The notes below the pieces were generated by a model, which had not been told where the DNA came from, did no database searches, and saw only the letters and a list, made by a program, of their open reading frames with translations. A DNA stretch of 64,000 nucleotides, from NCBI GenBank assembly GCA_020348985.1, contig CP070761.1, positions 1,856,905 to 1,920,904 of the forward strand, in the 5' to 3' direction. The stretch is from Candidatus Thorarchaeota archaeon. Its GTDB lineage: Archaea; Asgardarchaeota; Thorarchaeia; Thorarchaeales; Thorarchaeaceae. Shown here piece after piece: positions 5,447 to 59,727 of the stretch (positions are counted from its first letter, which is position 1; each line of letters opens with the position of its first letter). Made by a program: the position numbers and the translations under genes.

Positions 5447-5914
5447 ATGGCAACGGCAAGAAGGGCAGTTGACAGCACACTAAGGAAGTTGCTCACCTAT
5501 ACTGCAGAGATTATCATGTCGATAATCCTTCTAGTAATCGTTTGTCTGCCGCTTGTATTCACAATTCCTATGTGGATTCAGCATGTGGTCTTTGCCACTC
5601 CGAGGAGCGGATTTCTATTGGATCCTGTTGCTTTATTCGGGGGTGACGGGGCACTAGTTGTTACAATCGCATTAGCTCTCGTTTCTCTCATATTGGGATA
5701 CCCGTACTTGATGAAGATGCTTCCCTCCACAGCTGAAGAAGAAGAGCTCGTTGAAGAAGAAGCCGAAAACGAAGAAGAAGAGGAAGTCATGGAAGCTGAG
5801 GTCCTCGAAGAAGACGAAGTGGAAGAAGAAATATCCCAGCTCGAGTCAGAAGAGACAGAAGTGGTCGAAGACGTCCCCGATGATGAGGATTCGGACGAGC
5901 CGGATGCGGAATAG
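5447..5914 (+). CDS. Two-TM membrane protein with an acidic disordered C-terminal tail
   Basis: Two hydrophobic segments followed by about 60 aa of Glu/Asp-rich sequence. Confidence 0.75.
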   Translation: MATARRAVDSTLRKLLTYTAEIIMSIILLVIVCLPLVFTIPMWIQHVVFATPRSGFLLDPVALFGGDGALVVTIALALVSLILGYPYLMKMLPSTAEEEELVEEEAENEEEEEVMEAEVLEEDEVEEEISQLESEETEVVEDVPDDEDSDEPDAE

Positions 5915-5925
5915 TCAAGACGAGA

Positions 5926-6771
5926 TCACGGTCGCAACTCAACAAGCTGGACTATTCGGTCAACTATGCCAGAGAATTCCCTCAATATTCTTGAATTATG
6001 TACACCACCGACGAAAGGCAATCCCTTGTCGCTTCGACTAGGAACCCCTTCATCAAATGGCAAACTGCCGAGGTACTCAATATCATAGTCCTTTGCAGCC
6101 CCTTCGGCGGCGCCCTTACCAAAGAACTTGTGCGATTTGCCGCAGCCTGAACAGATGAACTCTGTCATATTCTCTACGATTCCCAGGACGGGAATATCCA
6201 GTTTTTCGACCAGGCGAATGGCCCTTCTTGCGTCAAGAACTGCGACATCCTGTGGAGTGGTCACTACGACAACTCCATCTATCTCCGGTATCGAATGAAG
6301 AATGCTCAGTATCTCATCGCCAGTTCCAGGAGGCAAATCAACCACAAGATAGTCTAGTTGTTCCCAAGCGACATCGCCCAAGAACTGACCAATGATCTTG
6401 GTGACAATGTTTCCACGCCAAGCTACTGCGTCATCAGGGTTTGTCAGCAAGAATCCCATAGACATGACCTTCAATCCACTCGGACCGAAGATAGGCAGAA
6501 TCACCTGGTTCTGAGCGGTGGGGTGTTGACCCTCAAGACCGAGAAGCTTTGGAACATTAGGTCCATAAATGTCGACATCTAGAAGCCCGGTCATGTAACC
6601 CTTTTTGGCAAGAGCAACTGAAAGATTCGTTGCGAACGTTGTCTTACCAACTCCGCCTTTGCCTGACAGAATCAATATCTTGCGTTTCACGTTCTTCAAG
6701 TTTTCAAGGACCTTGAGAGGGAAAGACCCCGACTTCCTTGTGCTAGTATTGGACATTGAAAGAGACCTCAC
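5926..6771 (-). CDS. mrp: Mrp/NBP35 family Fe-S cluster carrier ATPase
   Basis: SGKGGVGKT, DVDIYGPN, DLPPGTGD, TTPQ and ENMxxFxCxxC. Confidence 0.93.
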   Translation of the reverse strand: MRSLSMSNTSTRKSGSFPLKVLENLKNVKRKILILSGKGGVGKTTFATNLSVALAKKGYMTGLLDVDIYGPNVPKLLGLEGQHPTAQNQVILPIFGPSGLKVMSMGFLLTNPDDAVAWRGNIVTKIIGQFLGDVAWEQLDYLVVDLPPGTGDEILSILHSIPEIDGVVVVTTPQDVAVLDARRAIRLVEKLDIPVLGIVENMTEFICSGCGKSHKFFGKGAAEGAAKDYDIEYLGSLPFDEGVPSRSDKGLPFVGGVHNSRILREFSGIVDRIVQLVELRP

Positions 6772-6848
6772 TGTCGGACAACAAGGTCATTCCTTTGGCT
6801 TTCGATTTAAGCAGATGGATGTGACAATAACATCAGAGAGCCGCTACT

Positions 6849-7685
6849 CTATCTGTCATTGAAAAGTCCAACAAGAGCACCTGCAAGTAAACGCGAACCT
6901 GCAGCTACGAAGCTCATTCTTTGGGTAATGTCAAGCGGAAGAACAAAGTCCTCTCCTCTGATGTCGAGGACGCACCCCCCTGCCTCGAGTACCATGTGAG
7001 TTCCAGATGCATGTACTATCGGAAGAATGTCTCTCAGATCAATCATTCCATCCAATGCACCACAAGCAGTCCAACAAAGATCCAAGAGATTGCTGCCGGT
7101 TCTGCGCATATCATATACGCCTACTAGCGTCTTCAGAGATCCCACCTTGAACTCACCTGACCACTCCTTCTTTGTGTCGTACGACACAATAGATTTTGCC
7201 GGATCGATGGCGTCTGATGGCCTGACCGGTCTGCCGTTCCTCGTCACACCTTCTCCCCGTATTGCTACGTATGTCTCCTCAGTGAAGTAGGAGTCAATCA
7301 CACTGATCTCTATGTCTTCAGTTGTTGCATCTCTGGAAAATGGGGCAACCGAAATGCCGACCGTGCATAGAGGCATACCTCGCTCCAGATTCGTGGACCC
7401 ATCAATAGGGTCAACAATAGCAATGTAGTCTGGATCTTTGTCGGTTGTTACAAGACCATGTTCTTCGCTCAATATGGCGAAATCCTTCTTGGAGTCGCGA
7501 AACACGTTGATAATGTCCTCCTCAGAGCTCTCATCAAGAACCAGTGTGTTGTCGCCGAATGGATTCAATTCACCTGTGCGCTCGGAGACGTGTTCAAGAT
7601 TGCCAAGCACTCTGTTTCTGGCAGCTCCGATTGCGTCCTCTATTATGCTCATCAATGACATTTCGAGACCTCCACCAAACCTCAA
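6849..7685 (-). CDS. Inositol monophosphatase/FBPase family protein
   Basis: LSEE, VDPIDGSTN and RRTGS...DLCW motifs. Confidence 0.88.
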   Translation of the reverse strand: MRFGGGLEMSLMSIIEDAIGAARNRVLGNLEHVSERTGELNPFGDNTLVLDESSEEDIINVFRDSKKDFAILSEEHGLVTTDKDPDYIAIVDPIDGSTNLERGMPLCTVGISVAPFSRDATTEDIEISVIDSYFTEETYVAIRGEGVTRNGRPVRPSDAIDPAKSIVSYDTKKEWSGEFKVGSLKTLVGVYDMRRTGSNLLDLCWTACGALDGMIDLRDILPIVHASGTHMVLEAGGCVLDIRGEDFVLPLDITQRMSFVAAGSRLLAGALVGLFNDR

Positions 7686-7760
7686 GATGTTCAGCTAGTA
7701 CAACTCTTTAAAAGCATCAGTTGGGGAAAATTGCACGTAACGGTAGCACCGGTGGATGTT

Positions 7761-8417
7761 ATGGGCTTCCTGAGCGGTAGAAAGAAGGCAGACAATGAAC
7801 GTCGAATCCTAGAGGTCAAAGGCACTATGAATGCTCTGACCCTTCGAATGAGAAGACTTGATACTCGAATAGATACGGAGCAGCATTCTGCAAAGAAGGC
7901 GATATCACGTGGAGACCGCGAACAAGCGAAAGCTCATCTGCGATTGGTTGTAGACTTAGAGAACAGACGCGGACGATACCATCAGCAGTTTCTGACTCTG
8001 GAGACAGCATTACTGAACATAGAGGAAGCAAAAGATCAGGCTGAGGTTCTGAGAGCCTTTACGGTGGCTAATGAAGCCTTGACTGAAGCTCGTTCGATGT
8101 TGAGTCCTGCCGAAATCCAGATTCAGTTGGACCGCCTGGAGGAGTCATTTGAGCACATTTCGATTGCAGGTGACTTGCTTTCTGAGAGTCTGGGGGATAC
8201 AAGTTCCGCAGAAACAGATGAGAGAGTAGAAAGACAACTTGATGCAATGGAAGCCGAGATTCTCCTGGAGAAAGAAGGCATGCTGCCACCGCTTGGTGCT
8301 GAAGGTGAAGCGACCAGTGAGGAAGTTAGTGCGTCTGAAGAGAAGCGCGTAGACGAGATGCTTGCTGATTTGGAAAGAGAGGCCAAGGAAGAACGAGAAA
8401 AAGAGGCACAGAGCTAG
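7761..8417 (+). CDS. ESCRT-III / Snf7-family protein (Vps20/32/60-like)
   Basis: Amphipathic N-terminus MGFLSGRKK, basic helical hairpin (AKKAISRGDREQAKAHLR), LETALLNIEEA, and an acidic C-half with DERVERQLDAMEAE and LPP. Start refined to ATG 7761. Confidence 0.8.
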   Translation: MGFLSGRKKADNERRILEVKGTMNALTLRMRRLDTRIDTEQHSAKKAISRGDREQAKAHLRLVVDLENRRGRYHQQFLTLETALLNIEEAKDQAEVLRAFTVANEALTEARSMLSPAEIQIQLDRLEESFEHISIAGDLLSESLGDTSSAETDERVERQLDAMEAEILLEKEGMLPPLGAEGEATSEEVSASEEKRVDEMLADLEREAKEEREKEAQS

Positions 8418-8443
8418 AATCAGTTTTCACACCGGCGGTATTC

Positions 8444-9091
8444 TTGATGGGTTTCAGACTGGTAGTATTTGATGTAGATGGCACACTCACTAGACACTCC
8501 AGCATATGGTGGAGACTTCACGAACACTTCGGGACAGTCGAAGGTGGGAGGAAGCTTTACGATCAATTCTTCGCAGGCGAGATAACGTACCAGCAGTGGG
8601 CGTACTATGACGCTTTGCTGTGGACAGACAAGCCCTTATCAGAGGTCATGGAAGTTGTTGAAAAGACTGAGCTGGTCACTGGTGCAGTTGAAACAGTCGA
8701 GACCCTCAAAGAACAAGGGCTGAAGGTCGCAATTCTTTCAGGTGGAGTTGATCTGATGGCCAACGACATCGCAAGCCGCCTTGGAATTGATTACGTCGTT
8801 ACTAATCGGCTCCTTCATTCTAACGGACTCCTAACAGGCAAAGTCGAAGTCCTGTTCGGATGGGGCGAAAAACCCACGATGATTCGTAGGGTAACAGAAC
8901 ACTTCGGGGTCTCTTTGGATGAAACTGTCTATGTTGGCGATGGACTAAATGACGTCAGCGTATTCTCTGAAGTAGGACTGTCCATTGCGTTCATGCCTGA
9001 GCATGAAGATGTTGCCGAGGCCGCCACGGTTACTATTCGAGATGATGATCTCCGTTTCATCCTCCCCCATATACTATCGGAAGCCCTGTAA
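8444..9091 (+). CDS. HAD-IB phosphatase (phosphoserine phosphatase-like)
   Basis: FDVDGTL, LSGG and VGDGLND motifs. Confidence 0.85.
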   Translation: MMGFRLVVFDVDGTLTRHSSIWWRLHEHFGTVEGGRKLYDQFFAGEITYQQWAYYDALLWTDKPLSEVMEVVEKTELVTGAVETVETLKEQGLKVAILSGGVDLMANDIASRLGIDYVVTNRLLHSNGLLTGKVEVLFGWGEKPTMIRRVTEHFGVSLDETVYVGDGLNDVSVFSEVGLSIAFMPEHEDVAEAATVTIRDDDLRFILPHILSEAL

Positions 9092-10265
9092 GCATCAGTA
9101 TGAATACGTACACTTGTAGAAGAATAATCATCATTCCCTCGAAGGTATCCAGTTTCTCATCATCAGTAATGGCTCGTTTCAAGAACCACAAGCTGCCTGC
9201 GATTACAACAATTTGAAACAACACATAGATGTCGAGAGGAATCAGCACAAACATACCTATCCCTCCCATCACTAGAAGAACAATCTGAAGGACTCCTCCT
9301 ATGAGGTTGCCAACTGCAAGTCCGATTTTTCCTCTCAATGCGGCTATTACTGCAATGCCATGTTCTGGAAGCGCGCCTGCCGCGCCCAAGATTAGTGCAG
9401 AGATTGTGACTGGGTCCGCAATAGCACTCACAACATCATGCTGGGTTTCGAGCAAGATGTTCACGGACTCGGTAAGCATCTCACCTGCAAAGAAGATGCC
9501 AATAAAACCCGCTGTCCAAAGAACGGCTGCACTTCGCTTGGAGTGGCTAGCTTTGGCAATATCCTTCTTCTTGGAATCAGTGTCTCTTGCAAGGTCCCCC
9601 GCATAGATGAGGTAGGACAGAAATAACATCAGGGCCGCCCATGATGGGAATTTGAGCTCACGCCCAGGCACTGTTCCTGACGGTATCTCTGCAACCGCCA
9701 ATGCTATTATGCCCAGAGCGAACATACTCAATAGAGCAACGATCGTCCAACGAATGAGAACCGTGTCTTTCCTGACTACTTCTTTGGGAACTAGCATCTC
9801 AGCCTTTTTCCTAGTGGATATCACGATTGTAAGTCCTAGTAAGAGCATATTGAACCCCGCTGCCACAAGCACAGAAAGAATCGCGATGTCTAGTAACTCG
9901 GCATTTGCCGTTGTGAATCCCTCGAATGCCATGAAGAAGCTGATAACCGCCTCTGGCAAGTTGCTTGCCAGACTTGTTAGCATTCCCGCTATGTAGGCTG
10001 AGAAGCGTAAGTGACCGGAAATGCTCTCAATTCCATCAACTGCCCATTCTGAAGGTCTGAATGCCAACCAAGTTCCCATTAGCATTCCGAGTACCATTAC
10101 GAGTGACACTAACTGTCCTGTGAGCCTGAAATAGAAGTAGATTCCAATAAGCAACACAGCGATGAAAAGCTCCGTTCTGCTAGCACCGATCGAGTCTCTC
10201 ACTGAATGAAACTGACGATTCACTATGTCTGAGTCTTCCAGAGATGATTCTTCAGCCACGGACAA
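9057..10265 (-). CDS. Ca2+/cation antiporter (CaCA superfamily)
   Basis: About 11 TM segments. Alpha-1 repeat SLASNLPE and alpha-2 repeat GALPEH...AVGNLIG. Confidence 0.85.
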   Translation of the reverse strand: MSVAEESSLEDSDIVNRQFHSVRDSIGASRTELFIAVLLIGIYFYFRLTGQLVSLVMVLGMLMGTWLAFRPSEWAVDGIESISGHLRFSAYIAGMLTSLASNLPEAVISFFMAFEGFTTANAELLDIAILSVLVAAGFNMLLLGLTIVISTRKKAEMLVPKEVVRKDTVLIRWTIVALLSMFALGIIALAVAEIPSGTVPGRELKFPSWAALMLFLSYLIYAGDLARDTDSKKKDIAKASHSKRSAAVLWTAGFIGIFFAGEMLTESVNILLETQHDVVSAIADPVTISALILGAAGALPEHGIAVIAALRGKIGLAVGNLIGGVLQIVLLVMGGIGMFVLIPLDIYVLFQIVVIAGSLWFLKRAITDDEKLDTFEGMMIILLQVYVFILMLTGLPIVYGGG

Positions 10266-53062: not shown

Positions 53063-53983
53063 ATGGTCATCTTTAAAAGCCAAGCTCAGGACTTTCGCGA
53101 TGAATCCCCTTTAGAACAAACTAGGAGAGTCATTACGATTAGTCGAAAGAGGTGGGGAAAGTCAGCCGCCAAGACTGAGAAGATAATAAGAGATGCGGTT
53201 CCGAAGCCAGAGACGCTATCTGAGATAGACGAGTTTCTGAGCAAGGCAAGATCGGTCACCGCATACGAGCTAGCGAGGCGGTTTGGCGTTAGAATGAGTG
53301 TTGCTCGCCAGATTCTCAAGAAGAAAGAGAGTGAGGGAATCATAGTACCCTATGTACGAGACGGAGGTCTAGCAGTCTTTACCACCCCTGGCGAGATGGA
53401 ATCTCGAGATGAACCACGGCAAATCATTCTGGGAGATGCCATCGAAGAGGTGGCCTCAACCACATCGGAGGAGGCCGTCCTAACAGCTGACTTCGAAATC
53501 GCTTTTGCTGAGTCATCAGCTATTGGAGTTGAAAAGCCGGGCAGAGCAGCGCGTCGCCGGAGAGAAGTAGGTGAGAAGAAGGAAAGGAAGGACCTGCGAC
53601 CTGAAGTTGTCGTTGAGCCTCTTGCTGTAGAGGTACCTCCTCAAACTGCTGCAGAGGAGGTTCCCAAGGAGGCACCAAAGAAGAAGCCCAAGAAGAAAGC
53701 TCCTGCCAAGAAGAAAGCTGAAGAAGAGAAGCCCAAGAAGAAGGCACCAGCCAAGAAGAAAGCTGAAAAAGAGAAGCCCAAGAAGAAAGCTCCAGCCAAG
53801 AAGAAAGCTGAAAAAGAGAAGCCCAAGAAGAAAGCACCAGCCAAGAAGAAAGCTGAAGAAGAGAAGCCCAAGAAGAAGGCACCAGCCAAGAAGAAAGCTG
53901 AAGAAGAGAAGCCCAAGAAGAAGGCACCAGCCAAGAAGAAAGCTGAAGAAGAGAAGCCCAAGAAGAAGACCACAAAGAAGTAG
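53063..53983 (+). CDS. rps25e: Ribosomal protein eS25 with a long C-terminal extension and Lys-rich repeats
   Basis: RKRWGK...VTAYELARRFGVRMSVARQIL...EGII winged helix typical of eS25. The true start is uncertain. Confidence 0.75.
   Translation: MVIFKSQAQDFRDESPLEQTRRVITISRKRWGKSAAKTEKIIRDAVPKPETLSEIDEFLSKARSVTAYELARRFGVRMSVARQILKKKESEGIIVPYVRDGGLAVFTTPGEMESRDEPRQIILGDAIEEVASTTSEEAVLTADFEIAFAESSAIGVEKPGRAARRRREVGEKKERKDLRPEVVVEPLAVEVPPQTAAEEVPKEAPKKKPKKKAPAKKKAEEEKPKKKAPAKKKAEKEKPKKKAPAKKKAEKEKPKKKAPAKKKAEEEKPKKKAPAKKKAEEEKPKKKAPAKKKAEEEKPKKKTTKK
53684..53968 (+). repeat. 45-bp tandem repeat, 6 full copies plus a partial copy (KPKKKAPAKKKAE[E/K]E)
   Basis: Unit approximately AAGCCCAAGAAGAARGCWCCWGCCAAGAAGAAAGCTGAARAAGAG. 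Confidence 0.95.
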
Positions 53984-54159: not shown

Positions 54160-54729
54160 TCACTTCAGTGCTGCAATCTGTTTGTCCATATCCTCGAGCT
54201 GGGAGTCCAATTCGGCTTCTTTCGTCTTGTACTCCTCTTCGGGAATGTAACCTCGCATGTAGTCGAACCTGAGATCTGTCAATGCAGCCTTTAAGCGGTC
54301 CTTTTGCTGAAGCAAGAAGTCCATCTGGTCACTGCCCTCTGCCGGAGCTGCAGCAGTTTCAGCTGCTGGTTCAGCTGCAGGCGCAGGTGCAGTCACAGGC
54401 TCAGCGGCCGGTTCGGGAGCAGGTTCAGTGGCTGTTTCGGGTGCTGGTGCAAGCTCAGCAGCTGGCTCAGTTGCCGGTGGAGGCACTGCTACCGGTGGTG
54501 GAGCTGCCGCTGGTTTCACGGTCTCCATCTGCTCCATGTTCTTGCGAAGTATGTCAATCTGATTGGCAATCTCAGTAAAGCTATCATTGATTGTCTGGTT
54601 TACAGACATCTTCATCTTTGCTAAGTTCTCGGCCAGAGTATCTGCAAGCCTCTTGGTCTCTGCAACTTTGTCTGCGAATGCTTCGATTGCTTTTAGTTTC
54701 TCCATCACTTCTGAAAGGTCAAAAGACAC
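54160..54729 (-). CDS. Coiled coil - Pro/Ala/Glu linker - SHOCT-like protein
   Basis: N-terminal heptads, an APAPEPAAEP linker and DYMRGYIPEEEYKTKEAEL. Confidence 0.75.
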   Translation of the reverse strand: MSFDLSEVMEKLKAIEAFADKVAETKRLADTLAENLAKMKMSVNQTINDSFTEIANQIDILRKNMEQMETVKPAAAPPPVAVPPPATEPAAELAPAPETATEPAPEPAAEPVTAPAPAAEPAAETAAAPAEGSDQMDFLLQQKDRLKAALTDLRFDYMRGYIPEEEYKTKEAELDSQLEDMDKQIAALK

Positions 54730-54875
54730 AGAATGTCACCTTCGGTATTGTCTATCGTTCTGTAATTGACTGGCTGACGTTTATCAAGGTTGTCGTGACG
54801 GACAATCAACTCAGTTGTATTGCTGACATAGTATCAAGGAAACATCCAACCTGAGAGTTGATTTCAACACACACT

Positions 54876-55727
54876 CTAAGCGGCTGCGGCCTCTGCCTTT
54901 CCTTCCAAGATGGCTCTTCTAATGATCTGAATCAGTCTATCCCTATATGAAATGTCTATGGCAACCAATTCGTACGTGGGTATCGCCAGAATCTGACCGA
55001 CTCTCTCAGGTGTCAATGCGGTAGGAAGGTCCTGCTTGTTCGCAATCCCAATTACCTTCGCATCTGGCACTTCGTCTTTAACTAATTGAACGAGCTTCTT
55101 ACTCCTTAGAACATTCTCAAGAGTGCTGTCTGTAACGATGATGACAACCTGTGCATTTGCCACCATCTTTGCCCACAGAATGCTAAATCGAGACTGTCCT
55201 GCCAAGTCCCAGAGCACGATGTTCGCGGTGCTTATCTCCTCAGGTAGCTTCTTGATGGAAACGCCTATTGTTGGATCATGTACAAGAGGCAGAGTCTCTC
55301 CTCTTAGAAGATGAAGTGTTGTTGTCTTACCGACCCCGGCATAGCCCAATATTGCGACTTTGACCATTGTTACAGCAATCTCATCGACTTTCGCGTCAAA
55401 CCCATCCATCTGAGTTGCTGGATCTGGAAGCTCTGAGAAGTCTTTGATGAAGATGTCAACAAGCTGCTCCATCTTTTCCTCCATTTGCGAAGAATCGTCG
55501 GCCTTGTCAGCAACGAAGACGAACGTGAAATGCCCCTTGACGGCATAGAAGAATCGCTGAGCTGCAAGGTTCATGAATTCGGTCTTCTCTTCAAGATCGA
55601 CCGTCCTCAAGAATTGTGTCAGGTTCACAAGGAATTCTACTATGCTCTCAGCGGATTCGCTTTTGGCGTAGTCCTTTGAGTAGACAATGTTGCCTTGCTC
55701 ACCGAGGATGTAGACACTTCGAATCAT
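54876..55727 (-). CDS. Longin domain - small GTPase (Ras superfamily, Arf/Rab-like) fusion
   Basis: N-terminal MIRSVYILGEQGNIVYSKDY...FTFVFVAD (adaptin-sigma/longin pattern). G1 GYAGVGKT, G2 PTIG, G3 WDLAGQ and G4 NKQD. Confidence 0.88.
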   Translation of the reverse strand: MIRSVYILGEQGNIVYSKDYAKSESAESIVEFLVNLTQFLRTVDLEEKTEFMNLAAQRFFYAVKGHFTFVFVADKADDSSQMEEKMEQLVDIFIKDFSELPDPATQMDGFDAKVDEIAVTMVKVAILGYAGVGKTTTLHLLRGETLPLVHDPTIGVSIKKLPEEISTANIVLWDLAGQSRFSILWAKMVANAQVVIIVTDSTLENVLRSKKLVQLVKDEVPDAKVIGIANKQDLPTALTPERVGQILAIPTYELVAIDISYRDRLIQIIRRAILEGKAEAAAA

Positions 55728-56836
55728 GCAGGCTCACTCCACGTCCGACCTAGGTGGTCTAAATATCTACTCGCTATTTCCTGTGAAATCTGCTTTTCAC
55801 TTATCTTGGTAGATACCAAGGGCAGAACATACTCAGGGAAGAACGCTTCTATTGTAGGGTTAGTGACTAGCGCCCAAAGCTCTTGCTCCTTGAACTGTGT
55901 GGCAATCCTCTCCGATTCAAATGTCCACAGCACACTACCCAACACTTCATTTGGAAGACCTGTCTTCTCTTCCAATTCCGCCAGAGTCATGGGACGAGAT
56001 CTTAACGCCTTCAAGATTTTGTAGTACAGACTCTTCACGAGTATCCCGGACAGCTTTCTTCTATCTTCCATAATGGGTGAGTTTGGGTCATCAACTGGTA
56101 GAGTAGGGTTGTATCCTTTGCTCGGAGGCGGCGGAGTGAAGAATGCGCCTACTCTCTGCTTGTAATCCTCTACTATTCCTGGAAAGGATTGGAGAGCAAA
56201 TGAGAGCGAATCAACCGGCGGGGCCCTGTAGCTGAAGACATCTTTTAGAAGGAAGACAACCTCTGCTGTCTTTCCAATCATTTCGACCTTCACGATTCCC
56301 GCGTCCATTAAGGGGGCCATGGCTTCACGCAGTTCTATAGTCTCGCTTTGGATTTGGTCTTTTAGCCAGATTCCTAGTTTCGCCGCTCGTTCAACTCCCT
56401 CTTCCTGCATCTTCTCAAGCAGTAGTGCAGTTGATGGCGTCAGGAAGATACTAGCAAAGAGCTGTTCTTCGGACAGAACTTCCAAGCCACTTCCCCTCTG
56501 TAGAATCTCTCCCAGATCCACACGGTCCGGGGCCTCCTTCATAAGTTCGAGAATAAATCGAGCACTACTTGTCAGATCCTCACGAATCATCTCCACATCA
56601 TCATCAGGTCTCAAGACATAGCACACGAACCAACCAGGATGACGTTCGTCCCAGTATGATGCAATCTGCATGTCCTCTATTTCACTGACTTTCAGGCTCT
56701 CCTCAATATCTTGTTGATGCTCGTAGAAGATGAGATTCAGTTTCTTTTCCGAGAGAATCAACGTAGTTGGATGTCGTTTCTGAACAACGAAACCCTGAAG
56801 ATCGTCAAGCTGAACGACGAAAACTGCGTCTGGCAT
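55724..56836 (-). CDS. uDENN/longin-like N-terminus plus winged-helix domains
   Basis: AVFVVQLDDLQGFVVQKRHP (uDENN-like start). wHTH-like segments (LREAMAPLMDAGIVK; MTLAELEEKTGLP). Overlaps the GTPase start (ATGA). Confidence 0.6.
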   Translation of the reverse strand: MPDAVFVVQLDDLQGFVVQKRHPTTLILSEKKLNLIFYEHQQDIEESLKVSEIEDMQIASYWDERHPGWFVCYVLRPDDDVEMIREDLTSSARFILELMKEAPDRVDLGEILQRGSGLEVLSEEQLFASIFLTPSTALLLEKMQEEGVERAAKLGIWLKDQIQSETIELREAMAPLMDAGIVKVEMIGKTAEVVFLLKDVFSYRAPPVDSLSFALQSFPGIVEDYKQRVGAFFTPPPPSKGYNPTLPVDDPNSPIMEDRRKLSGILVKSLYYKILKALRSRPMTLAELEEKTGLPNEVLGSVLWTFESERIATQFKEQELWALVTNPTIEAFFPEYVLPLVSTKISEKQISQEIASRYLDHLGRTWSEPA

Positions 56837-56929
56837 TGCGTGTCTCTATTGTCGGTCTTCTGAGCAATCATAAATCTTTCCGAGTTAGACTCAATGCTGC
56901 ACAACAACGACTTCAGTGAGGAACCGTGA

Positions 56930-57301
56930 TTAGAAATGGTCGATACATGAAAGATTACCGCTCTCATCCACGATCCAGCAATTCTCGCAGACGAAAACCC
57001 CGCAGTTTCCACACTTCCCAATGTGGTGATTCAAACCTCTGAATTCACTGTCTGCAGAATGTTCGCCATGATTCGCACAAAAGGCACGGTGGCACCTTCT
57101 GCAGGAGACTTGTGGCGCCAATTCACAAAGGGAGCACAATTGAGATGACATTAGCTCTCTGAGAGGACCCGCGTCAGAACCGTTCGATTCACCGCCCCAT
57201 TCATTGCACTCTGCGTTGAGACACTCGCCCACTCCTTTGTACTGTCCACAGTAAGCGCAGAATGGCTCGAGAACAGGATTCTGACGACGCAATATGTACA
57301 A
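56930..57301 (-). CDS. Cys/His-rich multi-zinc-finger protein (B-box-like)
   Basis: CAYC...C...C; CSLC...CRRC...FCANH; CGNC...VCENC...CIDH. Confidence 0.75.
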   Translation of the reverse strand: MYILRRQNPVLEPFCAYCGQYKGVGECLNAECNEWGGESNGSDAGPLRELMSSQLCSLCELAPQVSCRRCHRAFCANHGEHSADSEFRGLNHHIGKCGNCGVFVCENCWIVDESGNLSCIDHF

Positions 57302-57399
57302 CTCCCGTCCCTGTCTTTCGTTTTATCAGCTAGTAGGCGCGTAGCTGGCCTTTGATGATGTATTCCTAGAAAGGATGAAAAGGCTTTCCTACATGGTCG

Positions 57400-59727
57400 A
57401 TGAGGGCGTCAAGAATGGACACTGACTTGCAATCATACACACTTCCAGTCAGTGCTATCCGGAGTGTCCGAACCCCTAGCGGACTCACCATGGAGCAGGC
57501 TGTGCCAGATACTTATGTGCTCGCCAACTTCGTTCTTAGAGCTCTATTGGAACGGAATGATCGCGAGATCGAGTTCATCGTGAAGGCTTACCTTCCAGTA
57601 AGTGTGATCAACTACTTCGACGCAAGAAAAGTCCTATTGGTTGAGCCCTTAGGATTCACCTCGACATCCTTCAAACTCTTGACCCTCTCGGATTTCAGGA
57701 AAACCCAAGACAGTGTTTCTGAGATCAAGTCCCCCTCCATTTTGGTCCAAGTCATGCGGGAATTGGCCGATGCAGTTTCCTCAAGTCCTAAACCCAAACC
57801 TATGACTTATCCTGGCCTCATTTCTGACCCGCTCGCAACTAGATTGCTGCAGCTGGAAACGTGGCCCACCGTAGAAAGATCAGAACCTCACTCCGTTGAA
57901 TTACCGGCACTTGTTGAGAAGAAACAGGCTGAGGAAGCGTTTGACAACCTGAGGATGTCCATCGAAAGCCTGATTTCGGCCCGCAAAACTCTTCCTGAGA
58001 TTCTCGACGTAGTACGTAAGAAGGTTGACACCTTCCTTGGCTCAGTAGACACCGATCAGGTTGACACCATTGCTCGACTGGATGCGCGCATAGAGTCTCT
58101 CTCTTCCACTATAGATGATTTGAATTCTCGTTATGCTAAGCTGAAGTCAGCTGGTCAAAAGAAGGAGGCACAGGAAGTCGCTGAGATCATGAAGAAGAGA
58201 GAATCCGCCCGGGAAAGAGACAAAGAACGAGTTGCAGAGCTTGTGTCTTCTCGCGAGTCGCTCCGAAAGGACCTTGCCACAAGTCTGTCCAATCTTGAGA
58301 AGAAGATTGCGATGATTCTTCCAGCAATTGAGTCTTCTCTCAAATTCCTTGACTCCCTGCCAGGTCTGTCCGCATCTTCAGGTCAGTCCTTCAGTTCAAC
58401 TACACTAATGCTGCCGTTCTTCGTTGTTGGCTTCTCAGCTAGGGGCAAACTCACCATCTCTGTTTATCCTCCGTCCAAGCTAGAACAAACCAGCGAAAAA
58501 CTAGGCAGGCGAGTCTCATTCATTGATTCTCTTGAAGTTGCTTCTCCTAGCGTCGAGACAGTCAGGCAATGGCTCTCAGAAGTGCTACGAGATGACCTCA
58601 CTCTGAGGGAGTTTCTGAGAGAGTCATCGCCAGAGCACAATCTCCTGGCGGTCAAGACAACTAGACGAATGATTAGATCTGGGGCTGAATCACTAGTCTC
58701 AGAGGGTTTGCTGAAAGAATCAACACTGTCAGATATCGATTCGCTCCTTGAGGGTGTGCCTGAGCGTGAGGTTCGAATGAAGGTACCTCGGAAGAAAATC
58801 AAGGATGAGAATGCGTGTAACGTTCGATTCCTCGCAACTGACGAAACAGGAGCGCCTGTTGAATCTGCTAGGCTTGAGATCGGAAATGTGCGTCTTCGCA
58901 CAGATTCTCAGGGAATGATCAGGGTACTTCTTCCTCTCGGATATCATGAAGGACTCATTTCGCACGAGGATTTCGAAAGATTATCTGTGGACTTCACACT
59001 TGACTCAATTGACGATGTTGTCATCCCAGTTGTCCTGAGACGCCTACCTTCCGAAGACCGATTAGACAGACAACTCGACCGTCTGATTGAGCGTGCCGAC
59101 CGCATTGACAAGATTCGTGAGAGGCTGTGGGAGGCCTTCCAAAAACAGGGTGAGACTCTGGTAACGATTCCAGCTTACAGAGCCTCTTTGTCGGAACTTC
59201 TTAGCGAGCTTGGATTTGAACCGGAGGCTTGGATTGCCAAAGCCTCCAAGAAGAAGGGCATGGTTCGGAGATTGCTCAAGCGTGATGATAGAAAGGCCGG
59301 CCTGCGCAGAGACATCCTGAGGCTTGCAGAAGAGTCGCGTCAGGCAGGCGGACTAATGCTAATGTCCGAGTTTCTCGTTAGACTTGACGATCTAGGTTGG
59401 GATGCAGGGCATGAGGAAGTCTATGGAATTCTTGACGACATGTCTAGGGAAGGGCTCATAGAAGGAATAGAATCCATTAACGGAGGTGCACGTTTAGTGA
59501 AGTTCATCCCTGTTGAACTCACGGATGATCCACAGAAGCTATTGGGCTTGGCGACTGAGAAAGACGGTCGACTTACAATCGAGGCAGTCGTAGTTGAGCT
59601 GGGGTGGCCAGAGGAACGTGTGGAGATAGCCATGAATTTACTCGTTGAGAAGGGAGTAGCAAAGATCCAAGAGAGCTACTCAACAAGTACTGTCTACTGG
59701 TTCCCCGGTCTCCGCAGAAAGAAATAA
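57400..59727 (+). CDS. Coiled coil + beta-sandwich + ESCRT-II (EAP30/Vps22/Vps36-like) tandem winged-helix fusion
   Basis: C-terminus LLSELG..P, GGLMLMSE, IPVELTDD...LL, LGWPEERVEIAMNLLVEKGVA and YWFPGL matches the Vps22/36 pattern. The central DETGAPVESA...TDSQG resembles a carboxypeptidase-regulatory-like beta-sandwich. Confidence 0.8.
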   Translation: MRASRMDTDLQSYTLPVSAIRSVRTPSGLTMEQAVPDTYVLANFVLRALLERNDREIEFIVKAYLPVSVINYFDARKVLLVEPLGFTSTSFKLLTLSDFRKTQDSVSEIKSPSILVQVMRELADAVSSSPKPKPMTYPGLISDPLATRLLQLETWPTVERSEPHSVELPALVEKKQAEEAFDNLRMSIESLISARKTLPEILDVVRKKVDTFLGSVDTDQVDTIARLDARIESLSSTIDDLNSRYAKLKSAGQKKEAQEVAEIMKKRESARERDKERVAELVSSRESLRKDLATSLSNLEKKIAMILPAIESSLKFLDSLPGLSASSGQSFSSTTLMLPFFVVGFSARGKLTISVYPPSKLEQTSEKLGRRVSFIDSLEVASPSVETVRQWLSEVLRDDLTLREFLRESSPEHNLLAVKTTRRMIRSGAESLVSEGLLKESTLSDIDSLLEGVPEREVRMKVPRKKIKDENACNVRFLATDETGAPVESARLEIGNVRLRTDSQGMIRVLLPLGYHEGLISHEDFERLSVDFTLDSIDDVVIPVVLRRLPSEDRLDRQLDRLIERADRIDKIRERLWEAFQKQGETLVTIPAYRASLSELLSELGFEPEAWIAKASKKKGMVRRLLKRDDRKAGLRRDILRLAEESRQAGGLMLMSEFLVRLDDLGWDAGHEEVYGILDDMSREGLIEGIESINGGARLVKFIPVELTDDPQKLLGLATEKDGRLTIEAVVVELGWPEERVEIAMNLLVEKGVAKIQESYSTSTVYWFPGLRRKK

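Follow-up and report, generated by a model that had tools for sequence, protein, structure and literature searches.

A conserved gene pair in Thorarchaeota couples an NPRL2/NPRL3-like protein to a longin-fused Arf-like GTPase and may encode one GTPase switch

A translationally coupled gene pair

Within a 64,000-nt window of a Thorarchaeota genome (3.16 Mb in a single contig; positions given without a genome or locus name are numbered in this window) we found two adjoining minus-strand genes, P0003 and P0002, which encode, respectively, an NPRL2/NPRL3-like protein made of a longin domain and two winged helices, and a small GTPase in which a longin domain precedes an Arf-like G domain. The explanation we favor, at about even confidence, is that the two proteins are subunits of a single small-GTPase switch and associate by longin-longin pairing. 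It starts from what was observed directly: both proteins have the folds described below, the motifs of the GTPase are intact, and the two genes are coupled, with a linkage between them that is both conserved and recurrent. The features of the locus are as follows.

54160..54729, minus strand: P0001, the third cassette gene, 189 residues, in which a Pro/Ala/Glu-rich linker joins an N-terminal to a C-terminal coiled coil
54876..55727, minus strand: P0002, 283 residues, with a longin domain (residues 1 to ~118) and an Arf-like small GTPase domain (residues ~119-277)
55724..55727, minus strand: ATGA overlap of the P0003 stop with the P0002 start, giving translational coupling
55724..56836, minus strand: P0003, 370 residues, NPRL2/NPRL3-like, with a longin domain and two winged helices
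56868..56879, minus strand: TATA-like AT-rich element AAAGATTTATGA, 32-43 nt 5' of the P0003 start; putative promoter of a P0003-P0002(-P0001) transcript
56930..57301, minus strand: P0004, ~123 residues, Cys/His-rich and putatively zinc-binding, with an uncertain TTG start; lies between the pair and P0005
57400..59727, plus strand: P0005, 775 residues (the database version begins at 57415), divergent from the four minus-strand open reading frames (ORFs)
59077..59712, plus strand: EAP30 domain of P0005 (residues ~560-771), Vps22/SNF8-like, with two winged helices

A preliminary description of this DNA, made from its sequence, had listed these five ORFs, all of which lie where it had placed them and on the same strands, as well as the ATGA overlap, which we read directly on the minus strand. 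The 4-nt overlap recurs in three fetched loci (L001, L002, and L005), in one of which the partner is 38% identical and the GTPase 76% identical. P0004 ends 93 nt upstream of P0003, and the TATA-like element 32-43 nt upstream of P0003 suggests that P0003-P0002(-P0001) may be transcribed from a promoter of its own, apart from P0004.

Conservation and recurrence of the pair

Comparing two whole-genome searches over 85 other genomes of the family, which represent 16 genera, we saw a P0003 orthologue directly upstream of the GTPase orthologue and on the same strand in every genome that had the GTPase (68 of 68), the match ends lying no more than 12 nt apart. The GTPase orthologue itself was present in all 23 high-quality genomes of the family. 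This gene order is far beyond chance; conservation across Thorarchaeia, raised in the preliminary description, was confirmed, and the arrangement recurs beyond the class. In a complete Jordarchaeia genome (its P0003 homologue is labelled Jordarchaeaceae; L014) three genes stand in a row: the partner, a longin-GTPase of 43% identity, and a small coiled-coil gene that carries the C-terminal motif of P0001. The same Thorarchaeota genome also holds a second, paralogous pair on the minus strand (G000:C1:2574876-2578318; L016:4876-8318), consisting of a 386-residue NPRL2-like paralogue (25% identity to P0003, E-value 3e-19) and, 464 nt downstream, a 605-residue GTPase whose Arf-like G domain is 42% identical to that of P0002 and whose ~345-residue C-terminal extension had no Pfam match. 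Two P0003-type genes flank a 345-residue longin-Arf GTPase in one Lokiarchaeia genome, each overlapping the stop of a giant upstream ORF, and among ~14 Lokiarchaeia genomes checked by hand a P0003-type gene was near a longin-Arf GTPase in four (within 5 kb in three of these), with ~10 lacking such an arrangement. Since Asgard GTPases are generally not found in operons with longin or roadblock genes, as stated for MK-D1 (Tran et al. 2024, PMC10933270), the fixed pairing of P0003 with P0002 is informative.

P0003 shares its fold and domain order with NPRL2 and NPRL3

An AlphaFold2 model of P0003 built from 24 homologues (mean predicted local distance difference test score, pLDDT, 77; predicted template modeling score 0.74) has the longin topology b-b-a-b-b-b-a-a at residues 1-116, a first winged helix at residues ~120-235 (helical with a beta-hairpin, and partly of low confidence), a disordered Pro-rich linker at residues 232-259 that is highly conserved, and a confident second winged helix at residues ~254-335 followed by two C-terminal helices. 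P0003 therefore has the N-terminal longin fold of NPRL2 and NPRL3 and, like them, places winged helices after it. Among full-length Foldseek matches, NPRL2/NPRL3 chains ranked top, and they were also the top eukaryotic longin match; the alignments to NPRL3 and NPRL2 spanned 257-431 columns, with rigid superposition limited to the longin parts, and a tandem winged helix-turn-helix cluster covered residues 120-330. The structural matches were scored as follows.

Solved Lokiarchaeota longin domain (8yqg): Z 10.5
NPRL2: Z 10.3
DENND1 uDENN: Z 9.3
Lst4: Z 9.3

The longin fold and C-terminal winged helices that had been proposed for 55724-56836 are thus borne out by the model and the structural matches, and the fuller label given to P0003, a uDENN/longin plus winged helix-turn-helix protein resembling NPRL2/NPRL3, holds at the level of fold and not at that of sequence. 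Pfam and NCBIfam returned weak helix-turn-helix matches alone (residues 273-307).

Close homologues of P0003 number 175, all of them from Asgard archaea, mostly labelled Thorarchaeota, and 50-58% identical. In a wider family alignment of 39 sequences the longin positions G15, P23, and H40 are near-invariant, and the longin consensus reads M-P-x-G-x5-W-D-x3-G-x5-K-Y-P. The most conserved stretch of P0003 within Thorarchaeota is the Pro-rich linker (57% invariant, versus 14-28% in other parts of the protein), with the consensus F-F-[ST]-P-P-P-P-x-K-G-Y-N-P-T-x-P-x-x-D-P-N-S-P (window 56059-56142). Relative to the wider family this linker is an insertion confined to Thorarchaeota, and it looks like a docking motif.

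P0002 is a longin-Arf GTPase under strong constraint

Residues 1-118 of P0002 have the b-b-a-b-b-b-a-a fold of the longin superfamily, so that the longin domain which had been proposed for the GTPase itself is present. In the G domain the motifs GYAGVGKT (G1), DLAGQ (G3, with the catalytic Gln), and NKQD (G4) are intact, the Pfam Arf match is above cut-off (8.1e-19), and the best matches in the PDB are Arf1/Arl1. P0002 lacks the N-terminal amphipathic helix and myristoylation features of Arf proteins, having no Gly2 and no C-terminal CaaX, and its N-terminus is the 118-residue longin domain, which begins MIR. Orthologues of P0002 are 80-92% identical, and nearly all are 283 residues long. Across 18 orthologues from many genera the G domain is 84% invariant (window 54897-55388, residues 114-277) and the protein's own longin domain 27%, and the partner protein reaches an identity of only 50-57%. 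Such invariance is an unusually strong constraint for an uncharacterised GTPase. A whole-genome search with P0002 gave 38 small-GTPase candidates at first look, 28 of which were scored. A feature search of the ESM Atlas with the longin part of P0002 returned no usable match.

A proposed longin platform and the evidence that bears on it

Pairing of longin domains occurs in NPRL2-NPRL3, FLCN-FNIP, C9orf72-SMCR8, and Mon1-Ccz1. By analogy with these, we propose that P0003 and P0002 would be produced together from a bicistronic, translationally coupled message, that the longin domain of P0003 would pair with the longin that P0002 carries ahead of its Arf-like G domain, and that the paired longins would form a platform carrying P0002's own G domain. 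P0003 would then be the non-GTPase subunit that sets or reads the nucleotide state, and its winged helices and Pro-rich linker could dock other proteins, likely candidates being P0001, a coiled-coil protein co-transcribed with the pair, and the Vps22-like P0005 in most Thorarchaeota. A complex prediction of P0002 with P0003, run on alignments of our own, scored 0.00, which counts neither for nor against. We infer the physical binding, the longin-longin heterodimer that is its most likely interface, the direction of regulation (P0003 as GTPase-activating protein (GAP), guanine nucleotide exchange factor (GEF), or effector), and any role at a membrane or with the endosomal sorting complexes required for transport (ESCRT).

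Several results weigh against this explanation. At the sequence level P0003 has no Pfam match to NPR2 (PF06218) or NPR3 at E≤1, and neither a profile of the whole protein (A1) nor one of the longin part built from 36 sequences (A6) found a longin or NPRL chain in the PDB at E≤10; members of A6 scanned singly against Pfam likewise gave no longin or NPRL match. At the structural level the Z-score to NPRL2 (10.3) ties with those to other longins (9-10.5). No Arg of the longin domain (residues 1-116) was seen to be conserved family-wide in the 39-sequence alignment, so that a GAP of the NPRL2 type acting by an arginine finger is unsupported; R21 is K/R in most family members and R93 is found in Thorarchaeota only, in this sequence-level comparison. 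P0002 in turn is Arf-like and not Rag-like, with no Pfam match to Gtr1_RagA, and its AlphaFold2 model (from an 18-row alignment at ≥75% identity) reached a pLDDT of 53, leaving the G domain unmodelled and the longin part alone usable; at this low confidence it gives no placement of the longin relative to the G domain. Outside Thorarchaeota, the Odin and Njord homologues of P0003 adjoin ~1,500-residue proteins and not GTPases, and a Rosetta-stone search found no GTPase domain in ten longer members of the P0003 family (485-722 residues).

In Odinarchaeum LCB_4 (L003:7095-12253) the P0003 homologue is followed by a 136-residue basic protein and then a 1,552-residue protein, with no GTPase; the 1,552-residue protein has one N-terminal and one C-proximal hydrophobic helix.

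The alternative that survives best, though we think it unlikely, takes its model from the signal recognition particle (SRP) receptor, in which the longin of SRalpha (SRX) binds the Arf-like SRbeta. Here the longin of P0002 would bind its own G domain in cis, and P0003 would be an effector or adaptor whose winged helices or linker recognise a single nucleotide state. SRX structures do match the longins of both P0003 and P0002. The linker, however, is confined to Thorarchaeota, yet the pairing is found also in Jordarchaeia and with Lokiarchaeia homologues that have no linker; moreover, longins of this class usually work in dimeric form.

P0005 carries a Vps22-like domain outside the canonical ESCRT cluster

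The divergently transcribed neighbor of the pair, P0005, begins with an alpha/beta domain of no assigned family and continues through a coiled coil (residues ~160-310), a middle domain, and a beta-sandwich resembling CarboxypepD_reg (~473-547) to the C-terminal EAP30 domain. A profile of three sequences covering the last 226 residues (A3) matched human SNF8 (3cuq_A) with an E-value of 2.8e-12 over residues 7-215 of 234, and yeast Vps22 (1u5t_A) with 1.9e-7. Pfam EAP30 (PF04157) matched all six of the P0005-family members (best E-value 1.9e-4); P0005 alone scored 13.1 bits against a cut-off of 26.8. The two-winged-helix core of EAP30 is present, and with 41% of its positions invariant this domain is better conserved than any other part of P0005. 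The remaining 550 residues had no match to an ESCRT family in Pfam. What had been described as a Vps22/36-domain fusion is, then, a protein with one true Vps22/SNF8 EAP30 domain and not a Vps22 plus Vps36 double.

P0005 as a canonical ESCRT-II subunit was considered and rejected: it has 775 residues and is not encoded with Vps25, ESCRT-III, and Vps4, whereas a canonical cluster lies elsewhere in the genome (G000:C1:2969432-2972974; L017:7432-10974), with an EAP30 protein of 254 residues, a Vps25-like protein of 241, Vps4 of 409, and Snf7 of 206. Because P0005 has an EAP30 domain of its own while this cluster is 1.06 Mb away, it is by sequence an extra Vps22 paralogue, restricted to Thorarchaeota and a sister family. 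The canonical cluster adjoins an Asp/Lys/Asn-type (class II, D/K/N) tRNA synthetase gene.

These data bear on a second alternative, which we judge less probable than cis binding within P0002, in which the pair and P0005 would form an ESCRT-II-like assembly feeding ESCRT-III and membrane remodelling. In its favor, beyond the conserved Vps22/SNF8 domain, P0005 orthologues were found in 74 of the 85 other genomes of the family; the gene is divergent from the pair and less than 1 kb from it in 61 of the 62 genomes with both on one contig (14 of 16 genera), and 3 kb separate it from the orthologue of the GTPase in the sister family (G311). A word-indexed search with P0005 gave 4 matches, having been crowded out by coiled-coil candidates. 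Several observations speak against an ESCRT assembly. Six genomes that are 95-99% complete (G320, G315, G322, and G387-389) keep the pair with no P0005 at E≤1e-40, and in two of these, searched to E≤1e-3, the canonical EAP30 was the sole match. P0005 is absent from the Jordarchaeia and Lokiarchaeia loci, the canonical cluster is remote, and no transmembrane helix or lipid-anchor motif was found in any of the five proteins of the locus. Nor do the winged helices of P0003 resemble EAP30 by profile: when the P0003 family was compared by hhalign with the EAP30 domain of P0005, the probability was 0.4%, with no relation detected. Since P0005 was not found in these near-complete genomes and is absent from the Jordarchaeia and Lokiarchaeia loci, we regard it as a frequent, lineage-specific associate outside the core pair. 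Of the earlier interpretation as a whole, the folds, the NPRL2/NPRL3 likeness, the longin on the GTPase, and the gene order stand; the ESCRT link is weak, having on its side a conserved divergent Vps22-like neighbor that is missing from several near-complete genomes with the pair.

Accessory genes of the locus

P0004 has three CxxC/CxxH ligand groups. The B-box that had been ascribed to it was not found; zf-AN1 (E-value 0.03) and zf-HIT (0.039) were its sole matches, both below cut-off. The gene is present in L001, and since several genera have a gap of 157-280 nt, too short for P0004, it is more accessory than P0005. For P0001 the label SHOCT was not confirmed, this domain not being among the Pfam matches at E≤1 (HMMER filters may drop weak matches); sub-threshold Pfam matches were to GvpG and to a CdvA-like coiled coil. 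P0001 is conserved 3' of the GTPase in L001, L005 (48% identity, E-value 2e-57), and the Jordarchaeia locus (E-value 4e-5), and a C-terminal D[YF]M.G.I..E motif, seen by eye, is common to it and the Jordarchaeia neighbor.

Further along, at window 53063-53983 on the plus strand, is a 306-residue ORF whose orthologue in L001 has a Pfam Ribosomal_S25 match, and which is about three times the usual length of eS25. Its winged helix has a faint EAP30-like match (window ~53195-53347, E-value 0.0046).

Receptor-linked members of the P0003 family

An exhaustive search for the P0003 family gave 116 representatives, and the family profile was found in 270 of 400 Asgard genomes, being near-absent from four families (2 of 77 genomes). 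In several members the module forms the C-terminal 350 residues of proteins of 1,300-2,500 residues with LamG and Ig-like domains. A hydropathy scan of these fusions placed a single transmembrane helix ~100 residues ahead of the module in every case, with a recurring FYF...GS.VG, and the two giant Lokiarchaeia ORFs that precede separate module genes have the same helix ~100 residues short of their ends. The surface proteins concerned are the following.

Lokiarchaeia surface proteins fused to, or start-stop-coupled with, the module: P0138, P0146, P0150, P0154, P0164, P0169, P0199, P0141, and P0155; L015:52-2754 and 5491-9357

Judged by sequence, then, the module in the Lokiarchaeia fusion lineages forms the cytoplasmic portion of a surface protein that crosses the membrane once. 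Directly downstream of the Lokiarchaeia cluster of receptor, NPRL2-like, and longin-GTPase genes is a form III/IV-like RuBisCO large-subunit gene (L015:10573-11913).

The position of the module in these proteins favors a role in signalling or as an adaptor at the membrane over classical DNA binding, as do the acidic winged helices of P0003. A third alternative, that P0003 is an ArsR-like winged-helix DNA-binding regulator of the operon or of other genes, with the GTPase modulating it or merely co-expressed, is accordingly one to which we attach little weight: P0003 has an isoelectric point of 4.7, its acidic to neutral winged helices have values of 4.6 and 5.5, the Lokiarchaeia module sits ~100 residues past the one transmembrane helix that the giant surface proteins have, and the ligands of the winged helices of NPRL2/3 and ESCRT-II are proteins. 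Least credible of all is that co-transcription serves regulatory economy and nothing more, with gene products that never touch and P0003 serving another GTPase or none, for although the genome holds dozens of small-GTPase candidates and the binding of P0003 to P0002 is inferred, the start-stop overlap and strict adjacency are kept down to 38% partner identity, and the pairing has either evolved anew or been retained separately in the second paralogous pair and in other classes.

A broader and more speculative reading, which we think doubtful and offer as a possibility to the same degree as the ESCRT assembly, is that the NPRL2-like module is the cytoplasmic output of Asgard single-pass surface receptors, signalling to longin-fused Arf-like GTPases, and that in Thorarchaeota a soluble copy became the obligate partner of one GTPase under extreme conservation and was wired to a Vps22-like scaffold. 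If true, this would be an archaeal counterpart of GATOR1, folliculin, and C9orf72-SMCR8 signalling, linked to winged-helix assemblies of the ESCRT-II type.

Relation to known systems

NPRL2-NPRL3 (yeast Npr2-Npr3) belongs to GATOR1/SEACIT, the GAP for RagA/Gtr1, and in NPRL2 the catalytic arginine finger is Arg78. P0003 has no detectable sequence similarity to these proteins and no arginine finger that was seen to be conserved; the Thorarchaeota locus has no DEPDC5, and its second longin is fused to the GTPase instead of being on a paralogous NPRL3. The GTPases differ as well, P0002 being Arf-like with an N-terminal longin whereas Rag has a C-terminal roadblock. With SRalpha-SRbeta the likeness is the combination of a longin with an Arf-like G domain, but P0002 has both in one chain and has no SRP/NG domain and no transmembrane anchor. 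The C-terminus of P0005 can be aligned over almost all of human SNF8, but P0005 differs in its length, its 550-residue non-ESCRT N-terminal part, and its location outside the ESCRT cluster.

C9orf72-SMCR8 and FLCN-FNIP resemble the pair in the longin-heterodimer logic that we propose. The W-D-x3-G of the P0003 family, in the beta1-beta2 loop, is reminiscent of the WD/GP motifs in longins of the GAP type and presumably matches C9orf72 at the residue level; P0003, however, lacks a DENN domain, the family does not conserve the Pro of "GP", and Thorarchaeota have lost the Trp. WD/GP motifs have been described in GAP-type longins, and GP motifs in some Asgard longins (Traffic 2025, PMC12290439).

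Both protein families are already known and are not new as parts. Liu et al. (2020/21, bioRxiv 10.1101/2020.10.19.343400) reported a family with a longin and an NPRL2 C-domain "in most Thor MAGs" (metagenome-assembled genomes) as well as longin-GTPase fusions, and longin/roadblock-GTPase architectures in Asgard archaea were described by Tran et al. (2024, PMC10933270). P0002 has the same architecture as the fusions in these two reports, a longin followed by an Arf/Rag-like G domain, and differs from them by its fixed, translationally coupled partner gene. In the papers that our literature search covered, which for Liu et al. meant the running text, we met no account of the strict P0003-P0002 operon, its Vps22-like neighbor, or the receptor fusions. 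What the window adds is a quantified link to the Vps22-like scaffold, a Thorarchaeota-specific linker motif, and a second paralogous pair in the same genome.

Significance

Asgard genomes hold dozens of eukaryote-like small GTPases together with longin and roadblock proteins, and the matching of regulators to GTPases has been obscure because their genes are rarely linked (PMC10933270). Should P0003 and P0002 fail to bind, what is left is a conserved neighborhood of catalogued eukaryotic signature proteins. As it stands, the operon fixes one set of GTPase and partner, an 84% invariant Arf-like G domain with an NPRL2-like protein, and the same pairing logic appears in other classes and in fusion to surface receptors, in a form that can be tested with two small soluble proteins. 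Questions that become testable in this way are whether GTPases were regulated on longin platforms before eukaryotes, whether the NPRL2-like partner acts as a GAP, a GEF, or an effector, and whether the pair contacts an ESCRT-II-type protein.

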